Below are positions 248 to 59,664 of a stretch of DNA of 64,000 nucleotides, one piece after another. The stretch comes from Squalus acanthias. Taxonomy: Eukaryota. A program made the position numbers and the translations under genes. Every line of letters starts with the position of its first letter. The stretch's first letter is position 1. The notes below the pieces were generated by a model, which did no database searches, was not told the origin of the DNA, and saw only the letters and a list, made by a program, of their open reading frames with translations. The stretch spans positions 110,982,001 to 111,046,000 of the forward strand of contig CM059431.1 of NCBI GenBank assembly GCA_030390025.1. Direction: 5' to 3'.

Positions 248-1198
248 ATGGCAGGGCAGCTCAGCAACGTGGAGTGCTCCTCCTGTGCTATGTTGGAAGT
301 CAGGGACACTTTAGGTGTCCAGGGCGAACACATGTGCAGGAAGTGTCTCCAGCTGCAGCTACTCAAAATCTGCGTTTCGGAGCTGGAGCTGCGGTTGGAG
401 TCACTGTGGAGCATCCGCGAAGCTGAGATCTTCGTGGATAGCACGTTTAACAAGGTGGTCACACCACAGGTAAAGCGTGCACAGGCAGACAGGGAATGGG
501 TGACCACCAGACAGAGTAAAAGAACTAGGAAGGTAGTGCAGAAGTCCCCAGGGTCCATCTCCCTCTCCGACAGATTTTCCGTTTTGGATACTGATGGGGG
601 AGAGGGTTTCTCAGGGGAATGCAGCAAGAGCCAAGTCCGTGGCACTACGACTGGCTCAGCTGCACAGGAGGGGAGGAAAAAGAGTGGGAGAGCAATAGTG
701 ATAGGGGATTCTATCGTAAGGGGAACAGATAGACGTTTCTGTGGCCGCAGAGGTGACTCCAGGATGCTATGTTGCCTCCCTGGTGCCAGGGTCAATGATG
801 TCACTGAACGGCTGCAGGGCATTCTGAAGGGGGAGGGCGAACAGTCAGAGGTCGTGGTTCACATTGGTACCAACTACATGGGTAGAAAGAGGGATGAGGT
901 CCTGCAACAAGAATTTAGGGAGCTAGGTAGCAGATTAAAAAGCAGGACCTCAAAGGTTGTAATCTCTGGATTACTCCCGGTGCCACATGCTAGTGAGTAT
1001 AGGAATAGGAGGATAGAGCAGATGAATGCGTGGCTAAAGAGTTGGTGCAGGAGGGAGGGCTTTAGTTTCCTGGATCACTGGGTCTGCTTCTGGGGAAGGT
1101 GGGACCTGTACAAGTCGGACAGGTTGCACCTGAACCGGAACGGGACCAACATCCTTGCGGGGAGGTTTGCTAGTACTGTTGGGGGGGGTTTAAACTAA
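248..1198 (+). CDS. CR1 ORF1 protein, intact 316 aa (zinc finger/leucine zipper + SGNH/GDSL esterase domain)
   Basis: CxxC..CxxC (CSSC, CRKC), heptad Leu stretch (LELRLESL), esterase motifs IGDS, PGA, HIGTN, DxLHLN. Confidence 0.9.
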   Translation: MAGQLSNVECSSCAMLEVRDTLGVQGEHMCRKCLQLQLLKICVSELELRLESLWSIREAEIFVDSTFNKVVTPQVKRAQADREWVTTRQSKRTRKVVQKSPGSISLSDRFSVLDTDGGEGFSGECSKSQVRGTTTGSAAQEGRKKSGRAIVIGDSIVRGTDRRFCGRRGDSRMLCCLPGARVNDVTERLQGILKGEGEQSEVVVHIGTNYMGRKRDEVLQQEFRELGSRLKSRTSKVVISGLLPVPHASEYRNRRIEQMNAWLKSWCRREGFSFLDHWVCFWGRWDLYKSDRLHLNRNGTNILAGRFASTVGGGLN

Positions 1199-4126
1199 CT
1201 TGGCAGGGGGATGGGATACGGAGTGGAGCTATAGTAGGGGATGATGCACAGCCAAATATAGAGGAAAAAACAAGTCAGCCTGGAAGGCAGAGCAAATATG
1301 TAATGGCACAAAGGAGTATGGCAAGGCTGGATGGCATTTATTTTAATGCAAGGAGTCTTGCGAGTAAGGCAGATGAATTGAAGGTGTTGATGAACACATG
1401 GGAGTATGATAATGTTGCTATCACAGAGACATGGTTGAGGGAGGGGCAGGACTGGCAGCTCAATATTCCGGGGTATAGAATCTTCAGGCGAGACAGAGGG
1501 GAGTGTAAAAGAGGAGGGGGTGTCGCAATATTAATCAAGGAGTCAATTACTGCTGTAAGGAGGGATGATATCTTAGCAGGTTCCTCTAATGTGGCCATGT
1601 GGGTAGAACTTATAAACAAAAAGGGGGCAAGCACTTTGCTGGGAGTATACTATAGGCCCCCAAACAGTCAGGGGGAGATAGAGGAATAGATATGTAGGCA
1701 AATCTCAGAGAGGTGTAGAAATAATAGGGTAATAATAGTAGGGGATTTCAACTTCCCCAATATGAACTGGGATAGTCAGAATGTGAAAGGCTTAGAGGGT
1801 GCAAAATTCTTAAAGTGCATCCAGGAGAGCTTTTTGAGCCAGCATGTAGAAAGTCCTACAAGAGAGGGGTCGGTACTGGATCTAATTCTAGGGAATGTAG
1901 CCAGGCAAGTGGTAGAAGTGTTAGTAGGAGAGCATTTTGGTGACAGTGACCATAATTCGGTGAGATTTAAGGTAGTCATGGAAAAGGACAAAGATGGACC
2001 GGAGATAAAGGTTCTAAATTGGGGGAAGGCCGATTTTAATATGATAAGGCAGGATCTGGCCAAAGTGGACTGGGATCAGCTACTTGTAGGAAAATCCACA
2101 TCAGAGCAGTGGGAATCTTTCAGAAAGGAAATAGAGTATAACGGCAACATGTTCCCATAAAGGTCAAGGGTGGGACCAACAAGCCCAGGGAACCCTGGAT
2201 GTCAAGGGATATACGAGAATGGATTAGGAAAAAAAGGGAGGCTTTTGGCAGATACAAAGGACTAAAAACAGTGGAAGCCCTAGAAGACTATAGAAAGTGC
2301 AGGGGAGTACTTAAAAAAGAAATTAGGAGAGCGAAGAGGGGGCATGAAATGACACTGGCGGGCAAAATAAAGGAAAATCCCAAGGTGTTTTATAAGTATA
2401 TTAAGGGCAAGAGGATAACCAGGGAAAGAGTAGGGCCCATTAGGGACCAAAGTGGCAATCTGTGTGTAGAGCCAGAAGATGTAGGTGGGGTTTTAAATGA
2501 ATATTTTGCATCTGTGTTCACAATGGAGAGGATGATGTAGGCATAGAGATCAGGCAGGGGGATTGTGATATACTTGAACAAATTAGTATTGAGAGGGAGG
2601 AGGTACTAGCGGTTTTAGCAGGCTTAAAAGTGGATAAATCCCCAGTCCCAGACGAGATGTATCCCAGGCTGCTGTGTGAGGCAGGGGAGGAGATTGCAGG
2701 GGCTCTGACACAAATTTTCAGAACCTCTCTGGCCACAGGGGAGGTGCCAGAGGACTGGAGAACAGCTAACGTAGTACCATTATTCAAGAAGGGTAGTAGG
2801 GATAAACCAGGGAATTACAGGCCAGTGAGCCTAACATCAGTGGTAGGGAAATTATTGGAAAAAATTCTGCGGGACAGAATTAGTCTCCACTTGGAGAGGC
2901 AAGGATTAATCAAGGATAGTCAGCATGGCTTTGTCAGGGGGAGATCATGTCTGACCAATTTGATTGAATTTTTTGAGGGGGTGACTAGGTGTGTGGATGA
3001 GGGTAGTGCAATTGATGTGGTCTACATGGACTTCAGTAAGGCTTTTGACAAAGTCCCGCATGAAAGACTGGTCAAGAAGATAAAAGCCCATGGGATCCAG
3101 GGCAATTTGGCATATTGGATCCAAAATTGGCTTAGTGGCAGGAGGCAGAGGGTGATGGTCGAAGGTTGTTTTTGTGACTGGAAGCCTGTGTCCAGTGGTG
3201 TACCGCAGGGATCGGTGCTGGGTCCTTTGCTGTTTGTAGTGTACATTAATGATTTAGATATGAATGTAGGAGGTATGATCAGTAAGTTTGCAGATGACAC
3301 GAAAATTGGTGGGGTGGTAAATAGCGTGGAGGGAAGCCTTAGGCTACAGGACGATATAGACGGGTTGGTCAGATGGGCAGAACAGTGGCAAATGGAGTTT
3401 AACCCTGAAAAGCGTGAGGTGATGCATTTTGGGAGGACTAACAAGGCAAGGGAATACACAATGAATGGTAGGACCCTAGGAAGGACAGAGGATCAGAGGG
3501 ACCTTGGTGTGCATGTACATAGATCCCTGAAGGCAGCAGGACAGGTAGATAAGGTAGTTAAAAAGGCATATGGGATTCTTGCCTTCATTAGCCGAGGCAT
3601 AGAATATAAGAGCAGGGAGGTTATGATGGAGCTGTACAAAATGCTAGTTCGGTCACAGCTGGAATACTGTGTGCAGTTCTGGTCGCCACACTATAGGAAG
3701 GATGTGATTGCATTGGAGAGGGTGCAGAGGAGATTCACCAGGATGTTACCTGGGCTGCAGCGCTTCAGCTATGAAGAGAGACTGGACAGGCTGGGATTGT
3801 TTTCCTTAGAGCAGAGAAGGCTGAGGGGGGACCTGATTGAGGTGTACAAAATTATGAGGGGCATAGATAGGGTAGATAGAAAGGAACTTTTCCCCTTAGT
3901 AGAGGGGTCAATAACCAAGGGGCATAGTTTCAAGGTAAGGGGCAGGAGGTTTAGAGGGGATTTGAGGAAAAACTTTTTCACCCAGAGGGTGGTTGGAATC
4001 TGGAACTCACTGCCTGAAAGGGTGGTAGAGGCAGGAACCCTCACAACATTCAAGAAGCATTTAGATGAGCACTTGAAACGCCATAGCATACAAGGCCAAG
4101 GACCAAGTGCTGGAAAATGGGATTAA
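1195..4126 (+). pseudogene. CR1 ORF2 (APE endonuclease + reverse transcriptase), disrupted
   Basis: Endonuclease motifs FNARS, ITETW, GDFN, SDHN and RT motifs [28 protein letters not shown]. In-frame TAG at 1687-1689 and frameshifts near 2135 and 2535. Confidence 0.92.
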
Positions 4127-4221
4127 AATAGACAGGGCTTGATGGCCGGCGCGGACACGATGGGCCGAAGGGCCTCTTTCTGTGCTGTATAACTCTATGA
4201 CTCTATGACTGTATGACTCTA

Positions 4222-5453
4222 TGTAACCTTCCAGATATTATGATGGTCCGGAAAACCCCCCAGAATTCTGCAACTCCTTACAAAAGATTGTACAGAAATT
4301 GAGTTTGCGAGGTTGATACAAAAATACTCTGTGAGACAATTCTAAAAATATATAGATTTATTAAAGAACCGATATTCAGCTAACAGCTGTTGATTCAATC
4401 GCAACTTTAACATTTCAAAATACAAATAGCTTATATTTCTTATCAGAGATCCTTATTCTCAAATCTTAACTTCGTTACATTTCCACTCTTCTAGTTATTC
4501 TTAATCCAGAATATCCACCAAAATCAAATACCTTGATTACCCGAGACTCAAAGAGTTGTAGGCCTACAGAGTGGTTCTGAAGGCGAGAATCGCCCTGCCC
4601 CTTCCAGCGACTTCTGACTTTCCATCTGAAAAGCTCTATTTTTATACCTTTTTTTAGTGGTTTATTCTTTGAAGTTTTCTGCTGATGTAAGCTAATTATC
4701 TCTAGTGATACTTCTGTTGACTTCTTTCTATTCTTACTGTTAATTCAGCTGTTAGCTTGCAGAATTCTGTCTGCTGTATAGGTGTTTCAAAAACTTATCA
4801 TAAAATGGTTATTACAGATTTATCTCTTTGATGCCATTCTTTCGAAGGTCTTCAATTCAATTCTTAATATTAGCTTAACTGCTTGTATTACAGACTTCTC
4901 GTCTCCTTGTGTTCCAAGTTCAACACATAAACAATGTGATTGCTTGGTACATCTATTGATGTAATATTTTCAAAGTCTTCTGTAGGTATCTTTTACAACA
5001 TGTAAATTAAAAACACTTCATCTCGGGTGTTTGTTTTCCTAGCCATCTTAGTTGGTTATATATATAATCGTGTTTCCTGTTTTATTTGATGTTACTTTTA
5101 CAAAGGCACATGGTTTTTTAATGTTCTGTGTTCCTGTTCGAAGTGTTATTTTATAACACTTAACTTGTGCATTGCTATTGTGTTGGTTCCAAACTGCAGA
5201 CTCCTTGGAACCTACAACCCTCTGTTTCAATGAGGCCATTGTCTTAGTATTTACAACCATTTCCCATTTCAAAGCTTGTGTGGTGTTGACAACTTTTGTT
5301 AACAACTGATCTTATCTCAGAAGCCTGTGTTCTGTTTGCAGCCTGTGTCGTTGAGGCTTTTAGATTTTTAAACCCAGTTTTTCATGTTTTAATAAAGTCT
5401 GAATTCTGTTCATAGGATGGTGTATCTCTTGGAATATGGCTATTTCCTTTACA
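4222..5453 (-). mobile_element. Solo-LTR-like element (~1.23 kb)
   Basis: TGTAA...TTACA termini. On the minus strand TATAAA (4646-4641) precedes AATAAA (4362-4357) in U3-R-U5 order. No TSD is visible because the left end abuts a LINE tail. Confidence 0.5.
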
Positions 5454-25837: not shown

Positions 25838-28798
25838 TACTTTAGTCACCTCGTCAAAAAATTCAATCAGGTTTGTCAGGCATGACCTACCTTTCACAAA
25901 TCCATGCTGGCTCTCTCTGATCACTGAAAAATTTCAAGGTGTTCAGTCACCCTGTCCTTAATTATAGACTCTAGTAATTTCTCAACAACAGATGTTAGGC
26001 TAACTGGTCTATAATTCCCTGGTTTCCCTCTCTCACCAATCTTAAATAGTGAAGTGACATGCGCAATTTTCCAATCTAAAGGAACGGTTACTGAATCGAG
26101 AGAACTTTGGAAGATTATAGTTAGGGCATCTGCAATGTACTCACTTTCCTTTAAAACCCTGGGATGGAAACCATCTGGCCCTGGGGATTTGTCACTCTTT
26201 AGTGTCATTATTTTCTTCATTACTTTTATTTTGCTTACATTAATTTTGTTGAGTCCCCGTCCCTGATTCAACATTAGATTCCTTGGGATTTCCAACACGC
26301 TATCCTCTTCCTCTACTGTAAATACTGATGCAAAGTAATTATTCAACATGTCCACCATTTCCTTATCATTGACAATATCACCGTTATCAGTTTTCAAAGG
26401 GCCAACATTGCTCCTGACCACCCTCTTTTTCCTAATATAATGGTAAAAAAAAATTGTGTTGATTTTGATATCCCTTGCAAGTTTCTTTTCATACTCCCTT
26501 TTTGTACCTCTTATTAGTTGTGTTGTCACCCTTTGCTGTTCTTTGTATCTTTCCCATTCGCCAGGATCTGTGCTATTTTTTTGCATTTTTGTATGCTTTT
26601 TCTTTTAGTTTTATGTTGTCTCTTTCCTCTTTAGTTTTCCATGGCTTTTTTTTTGGCAAGTAGAGCTCTTGCCCCTCAGGGGTATAAATTGGTTCTGTAT
26701 CACATTAAATTCTTTTTTGAACACCTCCCACTGATCTTCTGTCGCTTCACCCATTAACAGATGTGCCCAGTTTACTGTGGACAGTCTCTGTCTCATCGCA
26801 TTGAAGTCGGCCTTACCTAAATCTAGAATCTTAGTAGTTGTTTTCGCGTTTCTCCCTTTCAAACGCTATGTTGAACTCGATCATGTTATGATCGCTATTA
26901 AATAAATGTTCACGCACAGTTAGGCTGTTAACTAAATCTGGCTCATTACTCATTACTAAATCTAATATGGCATGCCCCCTTGTTGCCTCTAGGACATATT
27001 GTTGTAGAAAACTATCCCAGACACACTCAAGAAATTCACTACCTTTCTGACATGTGCTAGTCTGCTTATCCCAATCTATATGAAAGTTAAAATCCCCCAT
27101 TAAAACCACACTGCCTTTACTACATGTTTGTCTAATCTCTGCATTTATACAATCTAGCACTTCACAGCTGCTACCAGAGGGCCTCTACACAACTCACACT
27201 CCAGTCTTAAATCTTTTCCTATTTCTTAATTCTACCCATAAAGTCTCCACTGCCTGCTTACCTCTCATTATATCCTCCCTTATCAGTGAAGTGATTTTAT
27301 CCTTAATCACTAAGGCTACTCCTCCCCCTCTGCCATTTTCCCTATCTTTCCTGTAGACCTTATAACTTGGTATATTTAGTTTCCAGTCCTGACCATCTTG
27401 CAGCCATATCTCAGTAATGGCTACCATGTCATACCCTCCAAGTTGAATTTGCGCCTGCAGTTCATTCAATTTATTCCTTATACTCCGTGCATTTGTATAA
27501 AGAACGTTTATTTGAGCCACAAACCCTAACCTGTCCTTCGGCTCTAATGTTTTACTCACATGTTTCTTATTTCTCTCTCCTGGTTTAATCACTTTACATC
27601 TTTTAGTTTTCCCTTTACCTGTAGTGCCTAAAGCACAATTTCTGACTGGTACTTTACTCTCTTCCCTTTCATTTGTTTTTGAACTATTATTTATACTACA
27701 TTCTCCACCTGAGCCCTCCCCCCATTTACTAGTTTAAAGTCCTTGTGACCGCCCTATTTATCCTTTCCGCTAGGACCCTGGTCCCAGCCCGGTTCAGGTG
27801 GAGCCTGTCCCAATGGTATAGTTCCTTCCTGTCCCAATGCTGGTGCCAGTGCCCCATGAAATGGAACCCCTCTTTCCCACACCACTCCTTTAGCCATGTG
27901 TTCACCTCCCTAATCTGCTTATCGCTACGCCAATTTGCACGTGGCTCAAGTAATAAACCAGTGATTTTTACCCTTGAGGTCCTGTTCTTTTATCTAGCTC
28001 CTAGTTCCTAGTACTCCCCAAACAGGACCGCTTGCCTACTCTTCCCTATGTTGTTGGTCCCAACATGGGTCACAACGATTGGTTTCCTCCCCCTCTCTCT
28101 CCAATATCCTTTCAAGCTAGTTTGAGCTGTCCCTCACCCTGGCACCAGGTAGGCAACATACCATCTCTCGATCTTGCTTACAAAGGATGCTATCTGTCCC
28201 CCTAATTATTGAATCCCCTACAACTACCATATTACGCTTCCCCTCCTCCTCCTCCTCCTCCCCTCTTTGGACAGACTCCTGATCTAAGGTGCCATGGTCT
28301 GCATTCTGGCTGTCCTTTCGACAGTCTTTACCCTTATCCTCACAGGTAGCAAGTACATTGTACCTGTTGAATAGGATCAGTTTCTGTGGATCCTCGTTCT
28401 CTATCTCACCTGAGTTCTCCTCACTCTGCACACTATTGGTCACACGAACCCTGATCTGAACCTGCACCTCTCTAGGAGGTGTTATTGAAGTCTGGAGCAA
28501 ACTGTCCAGAAACTGCTCCCCCTCCTTTATGTGTTGGAGTGTCTCCAACTCGCACTCCAGCTCAATGACTCTGAGCCAGAAAGATTTGAGACAGAGACAT
28601 CTACTGCAGATGTGTTCGCTCGGGACAGTCTCGCTGTCCACAAACTCCCACATACTGCAGTTCAGACACACAACCTGCTCTGCCATAACGTAATCTAGAT
28701 TATTTATATTACTTATATCTACTTAAGTTTTTTTTTCTCTTTCAAAGAGCTGGTAAAAGCACAATGGGCCGAATGGCCTCCTTCTGTGCTGTATGATT

Positions 28799-51493: not shown

Positions 51494-54400
51494 TAGAAAC
51501 ATAGAAGATAGGAGCAGGAGTAGGCCATTCGGCCCCTCGAGCCTGCTCCGCCATTCGATGAGATCATGGCTGATCATCCAAACTCAGTACCCTGTACCTG
51601 CCTTCTCCCCATATCCCTTGATAGCTTTAGCTTTAAGAAATATCTCTAACTCATTCTTGAATATATTTAATGACTTGGCCTCAACTACCTTCTGTGGTAG
51701 AGAATTCCACAGGTTCACCACTCTCTGGGTGAAGAAATTCCTCCTCATTTCTGTCCTAAATGGCTTACCCCCTATCCTTAGATTATGACCCCTGGTTCTG
51801 GACTCTCTGACCATCGGGAACATTCTTCCTGCATCTAGTTTGTCCAGACCTGTCAGAATTTTATGTTTCGATGAGATCCCCTCTCATTCTTCTATACTCC
51901 AGCGAGTATAAGCCCAATCGACCCAATCTCTCCTCATATGTCATTCCTGCCATCCCAGGTATCAGTCTTGTGAATCTTCGCTGAACTCCCTCCATGGCAA
52001 GAACATCCTTCCTCAGATAAGGCGACCAAAACTGCACACAATACTCAAGGTGTGGTCTCACCAAGGCCCTGTACAACTGCAGCAGGACATCCCTGTTCCT
52101 ATACTCAAACCCTTTCGCTATGAAGGCCAACATACCATTTGCCTTCTTCACCGCCTGCTGCACCTGCATGCTTACCTTCAGCGACTGGTGCACAAGGACA
52201 CCCAGGTCTCGTTGCACTTCCCCTTCTCCCAATCTATTGCCATTCAGATAATAGTCTGCCTTTCTGTTTTTGACACCAAAGTGGATAACCTCGCATTTAT
52301 CCACGTTATATTGCATCTGCCACGCTTCTGCCCACTCACCCAACCTGTCCAAATCATCCTGGAGTTTCTCAGTATCCTCCTCGCAGCACACACTCCCACC
52401 CAGCTTTGTGTCATCTGCAAACTTGGAGATATTACATTTAGTTCCCTTATCTAGATCATTAATGTATATTGTGAATAGCTGGGGTCCAAGGACCGATCCC
52501 TGCGGTACCCCACTAGTCACTGCTTGCCACTCGGAAAAAGATCCATTAATTCCTACTCTTTGCTTTCTGTCCGCCAACCAGTTCTCTATCCAAGTCAATA
52601 CCTTGCCCCCAATCCCATGTGCCTTAAATTTACACGCTAATCTCTTGTGCGGGACCTTATCGAAAGCCTTTTGAAAGTCCAAATACACTACATCTACTGG
52701 TTCTCCCTTATCTATTTTCCCAGTTACATCCTCAAAAAATTCCAGTAGATTAGTCAAGCACGATTTACCTTTTGTAAATCCATGTTGACTTTGTCCGATC
52801 CTGTCACTGTTTTTCAAGTGCTCAGCTATTACATCCTTTATAATGGACTCTAGCATTTTCCCCACTACCGATGTCAGGCTTACCGGTCTGTAATTCCCCG
52901 CTTTCTCTCTACCACCCTTTTTGAATAGTGGGGCAACATTAGCTACCCTCCAATCCATGGGTACAGTTCCAGATTCCATCAAATGTTGGAAGATGATCAG
53001 CAATGCATCTACTATTTCTAGGGCCACTTCCTTAAGTACCCTAGGATGTAGATTATCAGGCCCTGGGGATTTATCGGCCTTCAATCCCGTCAATTTCCCT
53101 AACACCATTTCCCTACAAATACTGATTTCATTCAGTTCCTCCCTCTCATTAGACCCTATGTTCCCCGACATCTCTGGGAGGTTATTTGTGTCCTCCTTTG
53201 TGAAGACAGAACCAAAGTATGTATTTAATTGGTCAGCCATTTCTTTGTTCCCCATTATAACTTCCCCCGCTTCTGACTGCAAGGGACCTACACTTGATTT
53301 CACCAATCTTTTTCTCTTCACATATCTATAAAAGCTCTTACAGTCAGTTTTTATGTTCCCTGCAAGCTTACTTTCATATTCTATTTCCCCCCTCTTAATT
53401 AATCCTTTTGTCCACCTTTGCTGAATCCTAAACTGCTCCCAATCCTCAGGTTTGCTGCTTTTCCTGGCCAATTTATATGTCCTCTCCTTGGATCTTATGC
53501 TAGCCCTAAATTCCCTTGTTAGCCACGGTTGAGTCACCCTTTTTGTTTTATTCTTATGCCACACTGGGATGAACAAATTTTGTAGTTCATCCATGCAGTC
53601 TTTAAATGTTTGCCATTGCCTATCCACCGTCAACCCTTTGAGTGACATTCCCCAATCAATCCTACCCAATTCGCACCTCATACCATCGTAGTTTCCTTTA
53701 TTTAAATTCAGGACCCTAGTCTCTGATTCAACTACTTCACTCTCCATCCTAATGAAGAATTCTATCATATTATGATCACTCTGACCCAAGGGGCCTCGTA
53801 CAACAAGATTGCTAATTAATCCTTTCTCGTTACATAATACCCAGTCTAAGATGGCCTGATCTCTGGTTGGTTCCTCGACATATTGTTCCAGAAAACCATC
53901 CCGTAAACATTCTAGGAATTCCTCCTCTACAGTATTTTTACTAATTTGGTTAGCCCAATTTATATGTAAATTAAAGTCACCCATGATGACTGCTGTGCCC
54001 TTACTGCATGCTTCTCTAATTTCCCTTTTAATGCCATCCCCAACCTCCGTATTACCGTTTGGAGGTCTATATACCACTCCCACTAACGTTTTCTGCCCCT
54101 TGTTATTTCTCAGTTCTACCCATACAGATTCCGCATCATCAGAGCTAATATCCTTCCTTTCAATTGTGTTAATCCCCTCTTTAACCAGCAATGCTACCCC
54201 ACCTCCCTTTCTTTTTTGCCTATCTTTCCTGAATATTGAATACCCCTGGATGTTGAGTTCCCAGCCTTGGCCACCCTGGAGCCATGTTTCTGTAATCCCA
54301 ATCAAATCGTATTCATTTACCTCTATTTGCGCAGCTAATTCATCCACCTTGTTCCGAATGCTCCTTGCATTAAGACACAAAGGGGTAAAAATTCACTTGG

Positions 54401-54904
54401 TTGCGCCTCCCGTTAGCGCCTTAAGAGGGCGCTAATGGGGCGTTAAGCCGCTAACGCCCGGGCGCAGCGCTGTTTGCGCCGCTCGAGAACTTAACTTGAG
54501 ATTGTGCGGCAGCGCTAAAACTTACCGCTGCGACCACCTGCGCGCGCAGATTGTGACGTCATTCCATGGTGCAACGCCCTTGGGGCGCCCCGGAGCGGAA
54601 ATTGAGTGGCGCCCCCTGCCTTACCGCCTGGCGCTTCCAACGACCGGAAGACTGGAACGTTATCAATCGGTGTGGGGCTGGGGGGGGGCGCTATTTAAAG
54701 GGGGCCTCTTCCTGTTTTTTTCTGTGGTCGACATTTATGCACCACTCGTTCTGAGAGAGAGAGAGAGAGATTCGGAGAGAGAGAGAGAGAGAGAGAGAGA
54801 CTTCTACATTGACTCAACGCTTTGTGAGGTAGTTTTGCCTAGTTCATCCTAACTTTGTTGCTACTTTAGTTGCTGTACCTCATTACTTTTCTGGCAAAGA
54901 GAAT

Positions 54905-56052
54905 ATGGGGGCTGCAATGATTGGGGGCGTCGTCCTGCTCCAGCTGAATCGGAGGATACTGAGACGCAGACAGAGAGTGGCAATGATGGCCAGACGGAGG
55001 AGGGCCATCAGGCGCATGTACAGGAGAGCTTACCCTCCCAGGGTATATCGTGAACAGCTCTCCTACATCCATATGTCCGAGGAGCTGTGTTTGCGAAGGC
55101 TGCGATTCAGCAAGGAGGTGGTCACTGAGCTCTGCCACCTGCTGCAGCCAGATCTGCAGCCTCAGCTGAGGTCCAGGACGTCTCTGTCGGTGGCAGTGAA
55201 GGTCACAGTGGCTTTGAACTTCTACGCCACTGGCTCATTCCAAGCTGCTGTTGGGGACCTCGCCAATATCTCCCAGTTTGCGGTGCATCGCTGCATCCGG
55301 CAGGTCACCAATGCCCTCTTCAGAAGGAGACGAGACTTCATCTCTTTCCCTATGACCCCAGACAAGCAGCGTGACCGTGCTCTGGGCTTTGCGAGGGTAG
55401 CGGGCTTCCCCATGGTGCAGGGCGCCATTGACTGCACGCATGTGGCTTTGCGTGCTCCGCGAGAGAATGCAGAGGAATTCAGGAACAGAAAGGGGTTCCA
55501 TTCCTTGAATGTGCAGTTGGTCTGTGACCACAGACAGGTGATACTCGCTGTCAATGCCCACTATCCGGGCAGCTGCCACGATGCTTTCATCCTGCGCCAA
55601 ACTACTGTGGCAGAAGTTTTCGAGGCACCGCATCAGCCAGTTGGTTGGCTTCTGGGGGACAAGGGGTACGCATTGAGCACCTGGCTGATGACACCGCTCC
55701 GTACGCTGAGCTGCGGTACAATGAAAGCCATCAAGCAACCAGGAACATTATTGAGCGCACAATCGGCGTGCTGAAACAACGGTTCCGCTGTCTGGACCAT
55801 TCCGGAGGAGCCCTGCAGTACTCGCCTGAGCAAGTTTCGAACTTCGTAGTCGTGTGCTGCATGTTGCACAACATGGCAATCCTCAGGACCCAGCCAATGC
55901 CACCAGGCCTTGTAGCACCACCAGAGGAGGAGGAGGAAGAGGAGGAAGAGGACGAGGACGATGATCATCAGCAGCACCAAGGCAGGAGGGCGGCCCACAA
56001 TGGTCAAACTGCAAGGGCCGTCCGTCAACGACTAATAGCAAGCCGCTTCTAG
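54905..56052 (+). pseudogene. Harbinger transposase, frameshifted
   Basis: A 13-bp deletion (ccaaacacccctg) at ~55705 relative to copy 1 separates the catalytic Glu segment from the rest. Confidence 0.92.
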
Positions 56053-56346
56053 GGCCCCTGCCATTGCTACAAACACTAATCAACCCAGCACGCAACCCCT
56101 AAGCCGGCCAAGGCACCAATAATTCCAACCACCAGCCATGTATATTTTGAATACAGAAACTTATTTATTTTACAAACTCTGTGTGTGTCAATTCCTCATG
56201 ACAAACTCATAGAAATAAACACAAAAAAACAGTCAATAACATAACTGGTTCTCACAACCTGGAGATAATGTCCAAAACACTAAACAAAAGTTGGACCATG
56301 AACCTCGGCCTTTAATAAAAAAATGACCAGCATTTTGGCACACCTC

Positions 56347-58169
56347 CTACTTTTTGCCCTTCGAGGGTGATCTCCTTCCCTTGCGCACTTCCCCCCTTCC
56401 AACCCTACTGCTCCTCCGTAATGGGACCTCAGTGGCTGCAGCAAGGCTGGTGGAAGGCTGCTGCTCGTCAGACCCTGACACTGCAGATGCCCCTGAAGGA
56501 CGGCCTCGACCACTTCTGGGCCTGGAGGGCCCGGCTGCAGACTGCACCAACTCTGCATGGGCGGCAGCAGTCTGTCCTACAGGCGGTGGCAAGTGCAGTG
56601 GAGAAGTGACAGTGTTGGCAGCAGGAATGCTGTCATCGTGAGAGAGGACAGCAACTCCCTGCTCGCCCGACACACTGGCACTCCCACGGGGCAGCACTTC
56701 AGCATCCGGAGCAATTTGCCGGAGAACAGATTGCTGGCCTGCTGCGGCGCGGTGACAGCCCCGGGGACATGTGCACGAACCATCGAGGATGGCAGCAGTC
56801 AGTGCTCGCGTGGCCTCAATCTGAGTCTGCATGAGAGCAGTCTCAGATGGGTTCCTGGCAGCCAGTGACTGAATTGCAGCACTAAGCTTTAGTGTGGCAT
56901 CCGCCTGTGCTACAGCGAAGTGCTCCACACTCCTTGCCAGTGATTCAATGCATTCGGGCACCCTTCCCACTGCACCCATGAGCTCAGTGTGCATGCCCAC
57001 CGCCTGGCTGTTCATTTCTGCAATCAGCCGCTCCTCCTCTGCGTCCATTGCAGTAGGAGTGTCTGGCATACTCTCCCTCTGGGGAGAAGGCCCCCGTTCT
57101 TCCCTACCCCCCCCATGGCGTTGCTGCAGCCCGCTGGGTCCTGGAGCTTCACCATCATCAGCCCCTTCCCCCCTGCTCCCCTCCGGGGAAGGCGTGTTCC
57201 CAGTGTGGGCATGGGCTTCCTCGGGAGAGGGTGGCACTGATGCTCCGGCTTCCTCTTCCTCCTCAGCTGCAGCATCACTCCCAGTGGCAGCTTCAGGGCC
57301 CGTCTCCTCAGCTGGTGAATCACCATCTGAAAGCAGGGAGGTACAAGAGTGGCTTTAGCGTGAGGACAGGGTGGCAGTAAGGGAGGAATAAGTGCAGCGA
57401 GTTAGCAAGTTGGATTGAAAGTGTCAAAGGCTGGTATTGTGAGGGACAAGTGGAAGGACTGAGGACAAAAAGGTGATGACCTTACCATTGCTGTCCACAA
57501 CGGGGTCGGCATCTCCAGTGGCGACGGGACCGATCACCCGGCTTGCCACAATCCTGTGGACGCGCTCCTCCAGATCGCTGAGGGGTTGCAGCTGAAGCCG
57601 CCCTCCACCCGTCCGTTGCTGCTGTCTCCGATTATGAGCCAGCTTAGCCTGCAAGAAAAAGGACAGCATCTGAGTAAATATACAGCCATGGTCTTGCCTG
57701 ATGTGCCTCCCATAGGTGAATAGCCCTTACTGTATGCAGCCATGGTCTTGCCTGATGTGCCTCCCATAGGTGAATAGCCCTTACTGTATGCAAAGTGTAG
57801 AATGTGTGTGTGTGTTTGATGAAAGGGCCATAGGTGTTGGATGAGTGTTGTGCATTGGGGTTTTAAGACCCTCTGGCCATAGAGTGAGTTTGAGATGGAG
57901 GGATGGAGAGGTATTGAGAAAAAGCCACTCACCCTGACGACCCGAGTGAGGTCGTTGAACTTTTTGCGGCATTGAACATGGGTCCTGGGCACCATGCTCC
58001 TGGAGGAGACGCTCTGAGCCACCTCCCTCCACACTCTTCTGAACTCGCGTGGCAAAGGCCTCCTGCCACTCTCCGGGAACAGCATGCATCGTCTGCGCTC
58101 CACTGCGTCAACCAGAGCATCCAAGGCCCGCTCGGTGAAGCGATGAGCGCGTTCTCTCACCCTCTCCAT
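56347..58169 (-). CDS. Harbinger Myb/SANT DNA-binding protein, 3 exons (58169-57933, 57648-57486, 57326-56347), 459 aa predicted
   Basis: AGG|GTGAGT, TTGCAG|GCT, ATG|GTAAGG and TTTCAG|AT junctions give 237+163+980 = 1380 nt with no internal stop. RFTERALDALV..W..RTHVQCRKKFNDL Myb motif and a basic C-terminus. Confidence 0.85.
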
Positions 58170-58713
58170 GCTTGGCAGCAAAATGGATTACAGGTCTCTC
58201 CAGGCTGAGATTCAAGGCTGCAATGAGCAGGGTGTGGCTGGGGAGCAAGTGGCCCCCCCCGCTTTAAGAAGTGGCCGGCGCCAGTGTGTCTGTGTTCCCT
58301 CGCTAACTGGCAGCAGCTGCGCTGCGCTCGTGCGCTGAGTTAGCGCCTCACTCCTTGGCCTTTGCGCCTTAAGAGAGGTGTGCAGCGCCTAATTTAGCGC
58401 TCCACTCACCTCCCGGGGCGGTAAAAGTGAAGTTTCCTGTCAGTGCCGATAATTAGCGCCAGGCGCTAATATTTGCGTCCGGACGATATTTGCGCCCCAA
58501 ATGGGGCGCGACCTAATTTCTACCCCAAAGCCTTCAGGCTTGTTTTTTTAACGCTCTCAGACCTATATGAATTATTATTTACTGTGACCATGTTTGATTT
58601 AAACCGTTGAGTTCTTTGCCTTCTACTTTTGTTTTTCTCCTTCCTGTCTTTTGCTTTTATCCTTGTTTCCCTTTCCTCTGTCTCCCTGCTCAGGTTCCCA
58701 ACCCCCTGCCACT

Positions 58714-59664
58714 TTAGTTTAAACCCTCCCCAACAGCACTAGCAAACACTCCCCCTAGGACATCGGTCCCGGCCCTGCCCAGGTGCAGACCGTTCCATTT
58801 GTACTGGTCCCACCTCCCCCAGAACTGGTTCCAATGTCCAAGGAATTTGAATCCCTCCCCCTTGCACCATTCCTCCAGCCACGTATTCATTTGAAATATC
58901 CTCCTATTTCTACTCTGACTAGCACGTGGCACTGGTAGCAATCCTGAGATTACTACCTTTGAGGTCCTATTTTTTAATTTACCTCCTAACTCCCTATATT
59001 CTGCTTTTAGGACCTCATCCCATTTTTTACCTATATCGTTGATGCCTATGTGCACCACAACAACTGGCTGTTTGCCCTCCCCCTCCAGAATGTTCTGTAG
59101 CCGCTCTGAGACGTCCTTGACCCTTGCACCAGGGAGGCAACACACCATCCTGGAGTCTCGTTGGCGGCCGCAGAAACGCCTATCTATTCCCCTTACAATT
59201 GAATCCCTTATCACTATAGCTCTTCCACACTTTTTCCTCCCAGCCTGTACAGCAGAGCCACCCATGGTGCCAGGAAGTTGGCTGCTGCTGCCTTCCCCTG
59301 ATAAGTCATCCCCCCCAACAGCATCCAAAGTGGTATATCTGTTTGAGAGGGGGATGGCCACAGGGGACCCCTGCACTACCTGCCTGCACCTCTTACTCTG
59401 CCTGGTGGTCACCCATTCACTTCCTGCCTGTACACCCTTTACCTACGGTATGACCAGCTCTCTAAACGTGCTATCCACGACGTCCTCAGCGTCGCGAATG
59501 CTCCAATATGCATCCATCCGCAGCTCCAGCGCCACAATGCGGTCCATCAGTAGCTGCAGCTGGATACACTTCCCACACACATGGTCGTCAGGGACACAGG
59601 AAGCGTCCGTGATTTCCCACATATAGCAGGAGGAGCATATCACAGGGCGGAGCTCTCCTGCCAT
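58714..59664 (-). pseudogene. CR1 ORF1 (zinc finger + SGNH esterase), single in-frame TAG at 59445-59443
   Basis: ORFs 59443-59664 and 58714-59412 are in the same frame; total 951 nt, the same length as 248-1198. Confidence 0.92.

Follow-up and report, generated by a model that had tools for sequence, protein, structure and literature searches.

The DNA analysed, called here the window, is a stretch of 64,000 nucleotides from Squalus acanthias (GenBank assembly GCA_030390025.1, contig CM059431.1, positions 110,982,001 to 111,046,000), and it carries three copies (A, B and C) of long interspersed nuclear elements (LINEs) of the CR1 group. A block formed by a slippery heptamer and a stop codon, at the end of the first open reading frame (ORF1), is common to the three families that they represent, the ORF1s of B and C being 36-65% identical to copy A. 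The block has the form 'NNU UUA AAC - stop - about 7 more nt - G5 N2 G3-4' and is probably a programmed −1 ribosomal frameshift signal of CR1-group LINEs with an esterase-type ORF1, a reading to which a probability of about 0.7 is given on comparative sequence evidence.

Junction of ORF1 and ORF2 in copy A

The features of copy A are the following:

248..1198, + strand: ORF1, 316 aa, C-terminal residues GGGLN-stop
1189..1195, + strand: slippery heptamer T_TTA_AAC, in the X_XXY_YYZ phase of ORF1
1196..1198, + strand: ORF1 stop TAA, read from the sequence, abutting the heptamer
1195..1302, + strand: linker of 36 codons, open in the −1 (ORF2) frame, ending before the first in-frame ATG
1206..1215, + strand: conserved G-tract GGGGGATGGG, candidate frameshift stimulator, 10 nt past the heptamer
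1303..4126, + strand: ORF2, endonuclease then reverse transcriptase (Pfam PF03372, PF00078), decayed
4193..4223, + strand: 3' tail, about four CTMTGACT-like units of 8 nt, as read in the sequence

ORF1 closes with the codons GGT (1187-1189), TTA (1190-1192), AAC (1193-1195) and TAA (1196-1198), as claimed in the original prediction, which had placed TTTAAAC at 1189-1195 in the exact X_XXY_YYZ phase directly before the stop. ORF2 lies in the −1 frame relative to ORF1. This frame is open from 1174 (upstream stop TAG at 1171-1173) to 1689 and reads CTA ACT TGG CAG GGG, continuing into the endonuclease. Its first ATG is at 1303, 36 codons past base 1195 and 105 nt beyond the stop, and no restart AUG was found at or near the ORF1 stop. 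A −1 frame free of stops for 36 codons up to that ATG and on into the endonuclease, and a G-rich tract just downstream, had also been predicted; both were borne out, the tract TGGCAGGGGGATGGGA beginning at 1201. When the bases between the ORF1 stop and the endonuclease motif of copy A were shuffled, the −1 frame stayed open in 2.9% of the trials.

At 1298-1305, ATGTAATG forms a one-codon ATG-TAA mini-ORF in the ORF1 frame that overlaps the first ORF2-frame ATG (1303). This is a UAAUG-like arrangement, located 100 nt beyond the real ORF1 stop.

ORF1 of copy A comprises an N-terminal Cys-rich, coiled-coil-like part and a C-terminal SGNH/GDSL esterase (Pfam PF13472, E 8.1e-13). The nearest solved chain is PDB 4c1b, deposited as 'ORF1-encoded protein' (E 5.3e-27), and its alignment sets the last esterase helix near the ORF1 C-terminus. 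For this ZfL2-1 ORF1p, the PDB alignment ends 2 residues short of the chain end and the LN terminus is not visible. The ORF2 frame is broken at 1687, 2158 and 2538. Its endonuclease (PF03372, Exo_endo_phos) matches with E 6.8e-4 in copy A, under the Pfam cut-off, and with E 1.1e-7 in copy C, and its reverse transcriptase (RT, PF00078) with E 4.8e-34. The elements thus combine an AP-type (apurinic/apyrimidinic) endonuclease and an RT in ORF2 with an SGNH/GDSL esterase in ORF1 and 8-nt 3' repeats, as in esterase-type LINEs of the CR1 group; 'CR1-group' is used here as a loose label. Esterase and PHD domains were reportedly described in CR1-like elements by Kapitonov and Jurka in 2003. An octamer tail is given as typical of CR1 in the available part of PMC2612034.

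Conservation of the heptamer, the stop and the −1 frame

The in-phase heptamer was found in 17 lineage representatives including the window copy, as TTTAAAC in 15 and as G_TTA_AAC and G_GGA_AAC in one each. A stop codon follows directly in 14 of the 16 tabulated representatives (TAG 10, TAA 3, TGA 1) and is mutated in the decayed L112. Over the 240 nt that precede the heptamer, most lineages share 50-65% identity with one another, with A/B, L077/L082, L078/L084/L086/L089 and L097/L100 as closer groups, leaving about ten lineages with saturated synonymous sites. Conservation of the heptamer at synonymous sites, a test set beforehand, was therefore found across about ten lineages, and the free synonymous variation of the terminal Leu-Asn codons that would have spoken against frameshifting was not seen, these codons being fixed across lineages.

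From the codon usage of the ORF1 bodies (TTA in 28/192 Leu codons, AAC in 21/67 Asn codons, NNT in 569/2179 codons), the sequence NNT TTA AAC is expected with P = 0.012 per lineage given x-L-N. The third base before TTA is T in 14 of the 15 tabulated TTA lineages, and in the decayed L112. Elsewhere in the related ORF1s, in-phase X_XXY_YYZ heptamers occupy 9 of 2369 codon positions. Column conservation, computed over 13 representatives, was 12.4/13 for the heptamer plus stop and 12.2/13 for the G-run, with 7.2/13 upstream and 6.3/13 in the spacer. Judged from these comparisons, the conservation is at nucleotide level and chance is excluded as the source of the junction.

The −1 frame was followed in the lineages with an endonuclease motif within 130 codons (n = 11). 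From the heptamer to the endonuclease it contains 0 stops over 39-90 codons in 11/11 lineages, and the stops in the linkers of family-level sequences that had been looked for as a refutation were not seen. Over the same stretch, stops number 2-10 in the 0 frame and 2-17 in the +1 frame. The probability that the −1 frame stays open under base shuffling is 0.001-0.23, depending on the lineage. Five representatives without a motif match were left out of this count: L077 has one stop two codons ahead of a degenerate motif, L096 a decayed endonuclease, and L082, L086 and L100 too little DNA. No AUG (Met) occurs in the −1 frame between heptamer and endonuclease motif in 3 of the 11 lineages (C, L075 and L097), and in those with a linker Met the AUG positions differ between lineages.

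Junctions of distant relatives

Diverged relatives were obtained by scanning metagenome contigs with patterns from an alignment of 37 ORF1 proteins, located in the esterase core, far from the junction. The scan gave 55 loci with 25-42% identity to ORF1 of copy A. Both the ORF1 tail and the endonuclease are present in 14 of them, and 11 of these 14 have a heptamer junction (nine TTTAAAC, one G_TTA_AAC, one G_GGA_AAC). Together with three loci that have TTTAAAC in the ORF1 tail and no downstream DNA, there are 14 distant metagenome heptamer junctions in all. The junctions are as follows:

L075, L077, L078, L084, L089, L096: NNT TTA AAC, then stop
L079, L097 (TGA stop), L112 (stop mutated): decayed copies still with TTTAAAC
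L073: TCG TTA AAC TAG, that is G_UUA_AAC, in the same place and phase
L074: CAG GGA AAC TAG, that is G_GGA_AAC, in the same place and phase; ORF1 ends Gln-Gly-Asn
L082, L086, L100: ORF1 end GCT TTA AAC; downstream DNA outside the contig data
L098: esterase and endonuclease in one open frame, 285 codons
L110: junction deleted
L103: different arrangement, 273-2548

In L098 (1694-2546), the esterase C-terminus, a Pro/Ser-rich linker and the endonuclease are naturally fused in one uninterrupted frame without a heptamer; a fused polypeptide is therefore tolerated in a relative. In another locus, L105 (232-1915), an ORF for a tyrosine recombinase (Phage_integrase, E 1.9e-8) adjoins a GDSL esterase ORF, an arrangement suggestive of a DIRS- or Ngaro-like retroelement and not of a LINE.

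Among proteins, a search with ORF1p gave 83 sequences, of which 58 extend to the conserved C-terminal block. A C-terminal Leu-Asn is present in 54 of these 58, the named sources including Xenopus tropicalis, a turtle and two lizards as well as sharks, rays and skates. The four exceptions are a ..TIN end, a frameshifted tail, a ..NLNLNG end and a gene model running into ORF2. The residue that precedes LN is variable (G 26, A 9, T 6, D 3, S 3, E 2, C 2, Y 2, F 1). Two gene models of Hypanus sabinus, P0038 and P0084, read ..G-F-K-L-x-x-Q-G-A-G.. and continue to ..LYLNARSVRNK... Since F-K-L is the product of TTT AAA CTA, the heptamer and the open −1 frame are present in these models. Long fused proteins gave 3 matches, P0084 alone being informative, and the Hypanus sabinus models are annotation, not translation evidence.

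Several ORF1 copies sit inside gene models named for host genes (P0020, P0067 and P0084). A 294-aa ORF1p homologue that is 60% identical to the ORF1 protein of copy A (P0007) comes from a 4.2-kb contig and is listed at NCBI under Pseudomonas aeruginosa, with the name SGNH/GDSL hydrolase; most likely, it is vertebrate DNA contaminating a bacterial assembly.

G-tract downstream of the stop

A run of at least four G starts 7-12 nt after the heptamer in 14/14 lineages, at exactly 10 nt in 10 of them, and a two-part form G4+ N1-4 G3+ is present in 12/14. In the background of the same loci (94687 nt), there are 295 runs of at least four G and 26 two-part forms. The phase of the G-run is fixed in the −1 frame (NNG GGG GNN, giving x-G-x) and, therefore, RNA-level and peptide-level constraint are not separable. 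The G-tract may act as a frameshift stimulator.

Two other downstream elements were considered and rejected. A hairpin of the CCAGGC..GCCTGG type in L078, L084, L086 and L089 is about 27 nt downstream, too distant for a stimulator. A UGGGA motif resembling a termination upstream ribosome-binding site (TURBS) was seen by eye in A and B alone; it follows the stop and is thus on the wrong side for classical reinitiation.

Families A, B and C in the Squalus genome

The features of the other two copies in the window are:

58714..59664, − strand: ORF1 of copy B, 65% aa identity to A, ending GGT TTA AAC TAA
58723..58717, − strand: heptamer of copy B, then AGTGGCAGGGGGTTGGGA
54393..58519, − strand: Harbinger-type insertion of about 4.1 kb in copy B, between linker and endonuclease, no part of the signal
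54833-55771: DDE_Tnp_4 ORF of this insertion
57537-58187: Myb/SANT-like ORF of this insertion
27729..28686, − strand: ORF1 of copy C, broken, 36-48% aa identity to A, ending ACT TTA AAC TAG
27738..27732, − strand: heptamer of copy C, then TAAATGGGGGGAGGG

Family A is very young. The 40 matches scored, out of 1316 candidates, are all 98-100% identical, and these copies alone therefore say little about selection. TTTAAAC is present in 29/30 copies of family A, with the stop in 28/30, and the −1 frame is stop-free to the endonuclease motif in 23/30. For family B, the 12 copies other than that in the window all have TTTAAAC and the stop, and 7/12 have a stop-free −1 frame; the five others comprise three with an insertion and two with frameshifts. 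The copies of family C are 91-94% alike, and 28/30 have TTTAAAC, in each case with the stop (28/30).

What is apparently the same Harbinger-type insertion occurs at the same point in 3/12 of the other family-B copies (L064, L065 and L066), so the composite was copied as a unit or lies in duplicated DNA.

The G8 run that precedes the heptamer in family A (1181-1188) was scored in 30 copies (L001-L030), with a length of 8 in 23, 10 in 2 and 11 in 2; three are unscored (two with a substitution in the run, one with an intact run and a mutated heptamer), and none has 9. In family C, the run that follows the stop has 6, 7 or 8 G. Since G-run lengths differ between copies, homopolymer instability is, on these counts, the main decay route of the junctions. 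Transcriptional slippage at the G8 run of family A was rejected as a general mechanism, the run being missing in B and C.

Contigs of four runs from other organisms were also aligned to window positions 900-1700, and they bridge the junction (e.g. records 6, 13, 21 and 29). Among the 40 substitution sites listed of 193, 0 fall in 1186-1223, a weak hint that the junction block is kept in relatives. Right after the G-tract, at 1217-1304, contig depth falls 5- to 30-fold; loose ends lie at 1216, and depth rises again in the endonuclease. The contig insertions listed at 1299-1304 number four and come from a single contig of a single run. By these comparisons, the linker is the part of the element that is specific to the family and evolves fast.

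Proposed mechanism

The anatomy of the junction and its conservation are observed directly. In the proposed mechanism, the majority of ribosomes would terminate at the stop and release ORF1p, and a fraction would shift back by one base on U_UUA_AAC, tRNA-Leu then pairing with UUU and tRNA-Asn with AAA. The slipped ribosomes would then translate the −1 frame through the variable linker into the endonuclease and the RT. The expected product is an ORF1p-linker-endonuclease-RT fusion, ...G-L-N|L-T-W-Q-G... in copy A, at a ratio like that of Gag-Pol. The G-tract may aid slippage, as may slow termination at the stop next to the heptamer. Ribosome slippage, its efficiency and a stimulator role of the tract and the stop are thus proposed from the sequence pattern. 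A Gag-Pol-like fusion of the esterase ORF1 with the endonuclease and RT had been suggested in the original prediction, and the comparative evidence argues in its favour.

Several results weigh against a frameshift signal. No stable stem-loop or pseudoknot is predicted downstream in the 14 lineages; minimum free energy folds of the 90 nt from the stop codon have z values of −1.14 to +1.56 against dinucleotide shuffles. A two-tetrad G-quadruplex is predicted in only 4/14 lineages when quadruplexes are allowed in folding. The spacer from slippery site to stimulatory structure is usually 5-9 nt, which the 10-nt spacer to the G-tract exceeds. The linker is poorly conserved between families, and the lineages share ancestry and are not strictly independent. 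In the older family C, the −1 frame is open in just 6/30 copies and the −1 relation rests on the modal spacing. The distance from the heptamer to a fixed anchor downstream in the 25 measurable copies is 56 nt in 13 (ORF2 in the −1 frame, open from the heptamer), 55 nt in 7, 57 nt in 3, 58 nt in 1 and 61 nt in 1, and the window copy C itself has 55 nt, with the endonuclease in the +1 frame. Since the 55-nt copies are on different diagnostic backgrounds, as judged by eye, they would represent repeated homopolymer losses and not a subfamily. Finally, the signal is not universal among esterase-bearing LINEs. L103 has an esterase ORF1 without the heptamer; the 134-nt spacer after it is AT-rich and contains a stop in the ORF2 frame, and the ORF2 of L103 starts at an AUG and has an L1-like endonuclease motif (..LLQETH..). 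L103 probably belongs to another clade, and its anatomy indicates that the esterase ORF1 module also exists in a LINE with a conventional junction.

Further points of this kind concern the position of AUG codons. An in-frame AUG overlaps the stop or lies within 5 nt of it in 4/14 lineages (TAATG in L096, TAGACATG in L078, TAGCTATG in L089 and TAGGTATG in L079), where reinitiation is therefore possible, and the linkers of A and B have an in-frame AUG 14 and 22 codons, respectively, before the endonuclease motif. ORF2 could then be expressed by termination-reinitiation or AUG-independent reinitiation of the SART1 or human L1 type, the block being a tethering or restart signal and not a slip site. 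A G-tract without a predicted classical stimulator fold is compatible with this, and reinitiation is among the mechanisms weighed for the unresolved initiation of LINE ORF2 in the available parts of two reviews (PMC5009743, PMC3894237), the UAAUG stop-start of SART1 serving as an instance. However, 10/14 lineages have no AUG near the stop and 3/11 have none at all before the endonuclease. Reinitiation also leaves unexplained why an in-phase heptamer always fills the 7 nt before the stop, including the G_GGA_AAC and G_TTA_AAC replacements, why ORF2 is constantly in the −1 frame, and why 39-90 codons from heptamer to endonuclease are stop-free in 11/11 lineages. It is thus considered unlikely, though the strongest of the alternatives.

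The Leu-Asn end of 54/58 ORF1 proteins, with the last esterase helix of the 4c1b alignment nearby, would also fit a protein constraint, by which ORF1p needs these C-terminal residues, the codons happen to be TTA AAC, and ORF2 is translated from an AUG, an internal ribosome entry site or by leaky scanning. Yet the codons themselves are fixed (TTA, AAC and the preceding NNT, at the P = 0.012 per lineage given above), the residue before LN varies while its third base is T in 14/15 TTA lineages, and L074 ends in Gln-Gly-Asn, having retained a slippery heptamer instead of the Leu. The open −1 frames and the G-tract are left without explanation, which makes this account very improbable. Much the same low probability is given to conservation of the block for a non-translational role (RNA packaging, an internal promoter or a protein-binding site) with the slippery pattern and the frames as by-products. 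The G-tract, a linear motif without a clear fold, would suit such a role, but a non-translational signal would need neither codon phase nor stop adjacency nor an open −1 frame, and two lineages altered the sequence and yet kept the X_XXY_YYZ pattern. Programmed −1 frameshifting is, therefore, the preferred reading of the junction.

Implications and relation to known systems

How ORF2 is initiated in LINEs is an open question according to the accessible text of a 2013 review (PMC3894237), and in that of PMC5009743 frameshifting among non-LTR (long terminal repeat) elements is mentioned only for HeT-A gag. In full-text searches, no proposal of frameshifting for CR1 or L2 was found; the first turtle, chicken and fugu CR1 papers may mention the frame relation. 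The term 'frameshift' is absent from PMC13343379 (CR1-group diversity, 2026), PMC4120745 (Jockey-superfamily ORF1), PMC3905857 (esterase structure) and PMC3894237 (biogenesis of non-LTR proteins). A Gag-Pol-like −1 signal that combines an unusual G-tract with an abutting stop would thus appear to be new for vertebrate non-LTR elements, priority not being certain.

If frameshifting holds, CR1-group elements would have a simple answer to how LINEs translate ORF2 from a bicistronic RNA. The frameshift would set the ORF2:ORF1 ratio and physically tie the polymerase to ORF1p, moving non-LTR elements closer to retroviral Gag-Pol logic. Annotation would change, the ORF2 'start codon' of these families becoming meaningless, and the G-tract would be a new frameshift stimulator for study. 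A wider proposition is put forward tentatively, with somewhat less than even confidence: that in esterase-type CR1-group LINEs, which dominate among the retrotransposons of many vertebrates, the endonuclease and RT have been produced solely as an ORF1-ORF2 fusion over several hundred million years, by −1 frameshifting at U_UUA_AAC-stop, and that this is driven by a new type of stimulator, a linear G5-N2-G3 tract 10 nt downstream acting through a bound protein or a weak G-quadruplex and without a pseudoknot.

Other LINEs provide two comparisons. The Dictyostelium elements TRE5-A and TRE3-A need a −1 frameshift for ORF2, as stated in the available part of PMC5911963, and the idea therefore has a precedent in LINEs. 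These belong to another clade and host and are compared by description; unlike them, the CR1-group case has a canonical heptamer conserved across vertebrate lineages. As in SART1 (UAAUG) and human L1, the RNA is bicistronic and expression of ORF2 is coupled to translation of ORF1 (PMC3894237, PMC5009743, both as far as available). SART1 and human L1, however, make a separate ORF2p and need neither a slippery site nor an open overlap, and the AUG at the stop that marks the SART1 type is found in only 4/14 CR1-group lineages.

Coronavirus and arterivirus frameshift sites are similar in the heptamer and different in what follows it. The CR1-group heptamer is identical to the 1a/1b site U_UUA_AAC of a coronavirus (infectious bronchitis virus), in agreement with what had been stated earlier for the coronavirus slippery site, and the L073 heptamer equals the equine arteritis virus variant G_UUA_AAC (PMC5009743, part available). 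Unlike these viral sites, the CR1-group junctions have no comparable structure predicted downstream of the heptamer. In the viruses, frameshifting depends on a pseudoknot some 6 nt past the site. A parallel for the G-tract may be found in arteriviruses (nsp1beta/PCBP, C-rich motif) and cardioviruses (2A), where proteins stimulate frameshifting and a linear or weakly structured element is located about 11-14 nt past the shift site. The G-tract, at 10 nt, is similarly spaced, the motif being G-rich and not C-rich.

There is also a likeness to the Gag-Pol arrangement of retroviruses, LTR retroelements and PEG10, in which the upstream ORF, structural or accessory, ends in an X_XXY_YYZ heptamer and the polymerase is encoded in the −1 frame; in both cases, fusion protein is expected at a low ratio. 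The host of the CR1-group signal differs in being a non-LTR element without capsid or protease, whose upstream protein is a coiled-coil esterase and not Gag. The signal also differs in that the 0-frame stop abuts the heptamer and a G-tract 7-12 nt downstream takes the place of a predicted pseudoknot or hairpin. PEG10 is a derived gene with a G_GGA_AAC frameshift site, and the same heptamer is used by L074. Both G_GGA_AAC and U_UUA_AAC are listed among the most shift-prone sites on mammalian ribosomes in the available text of PMC5009743.

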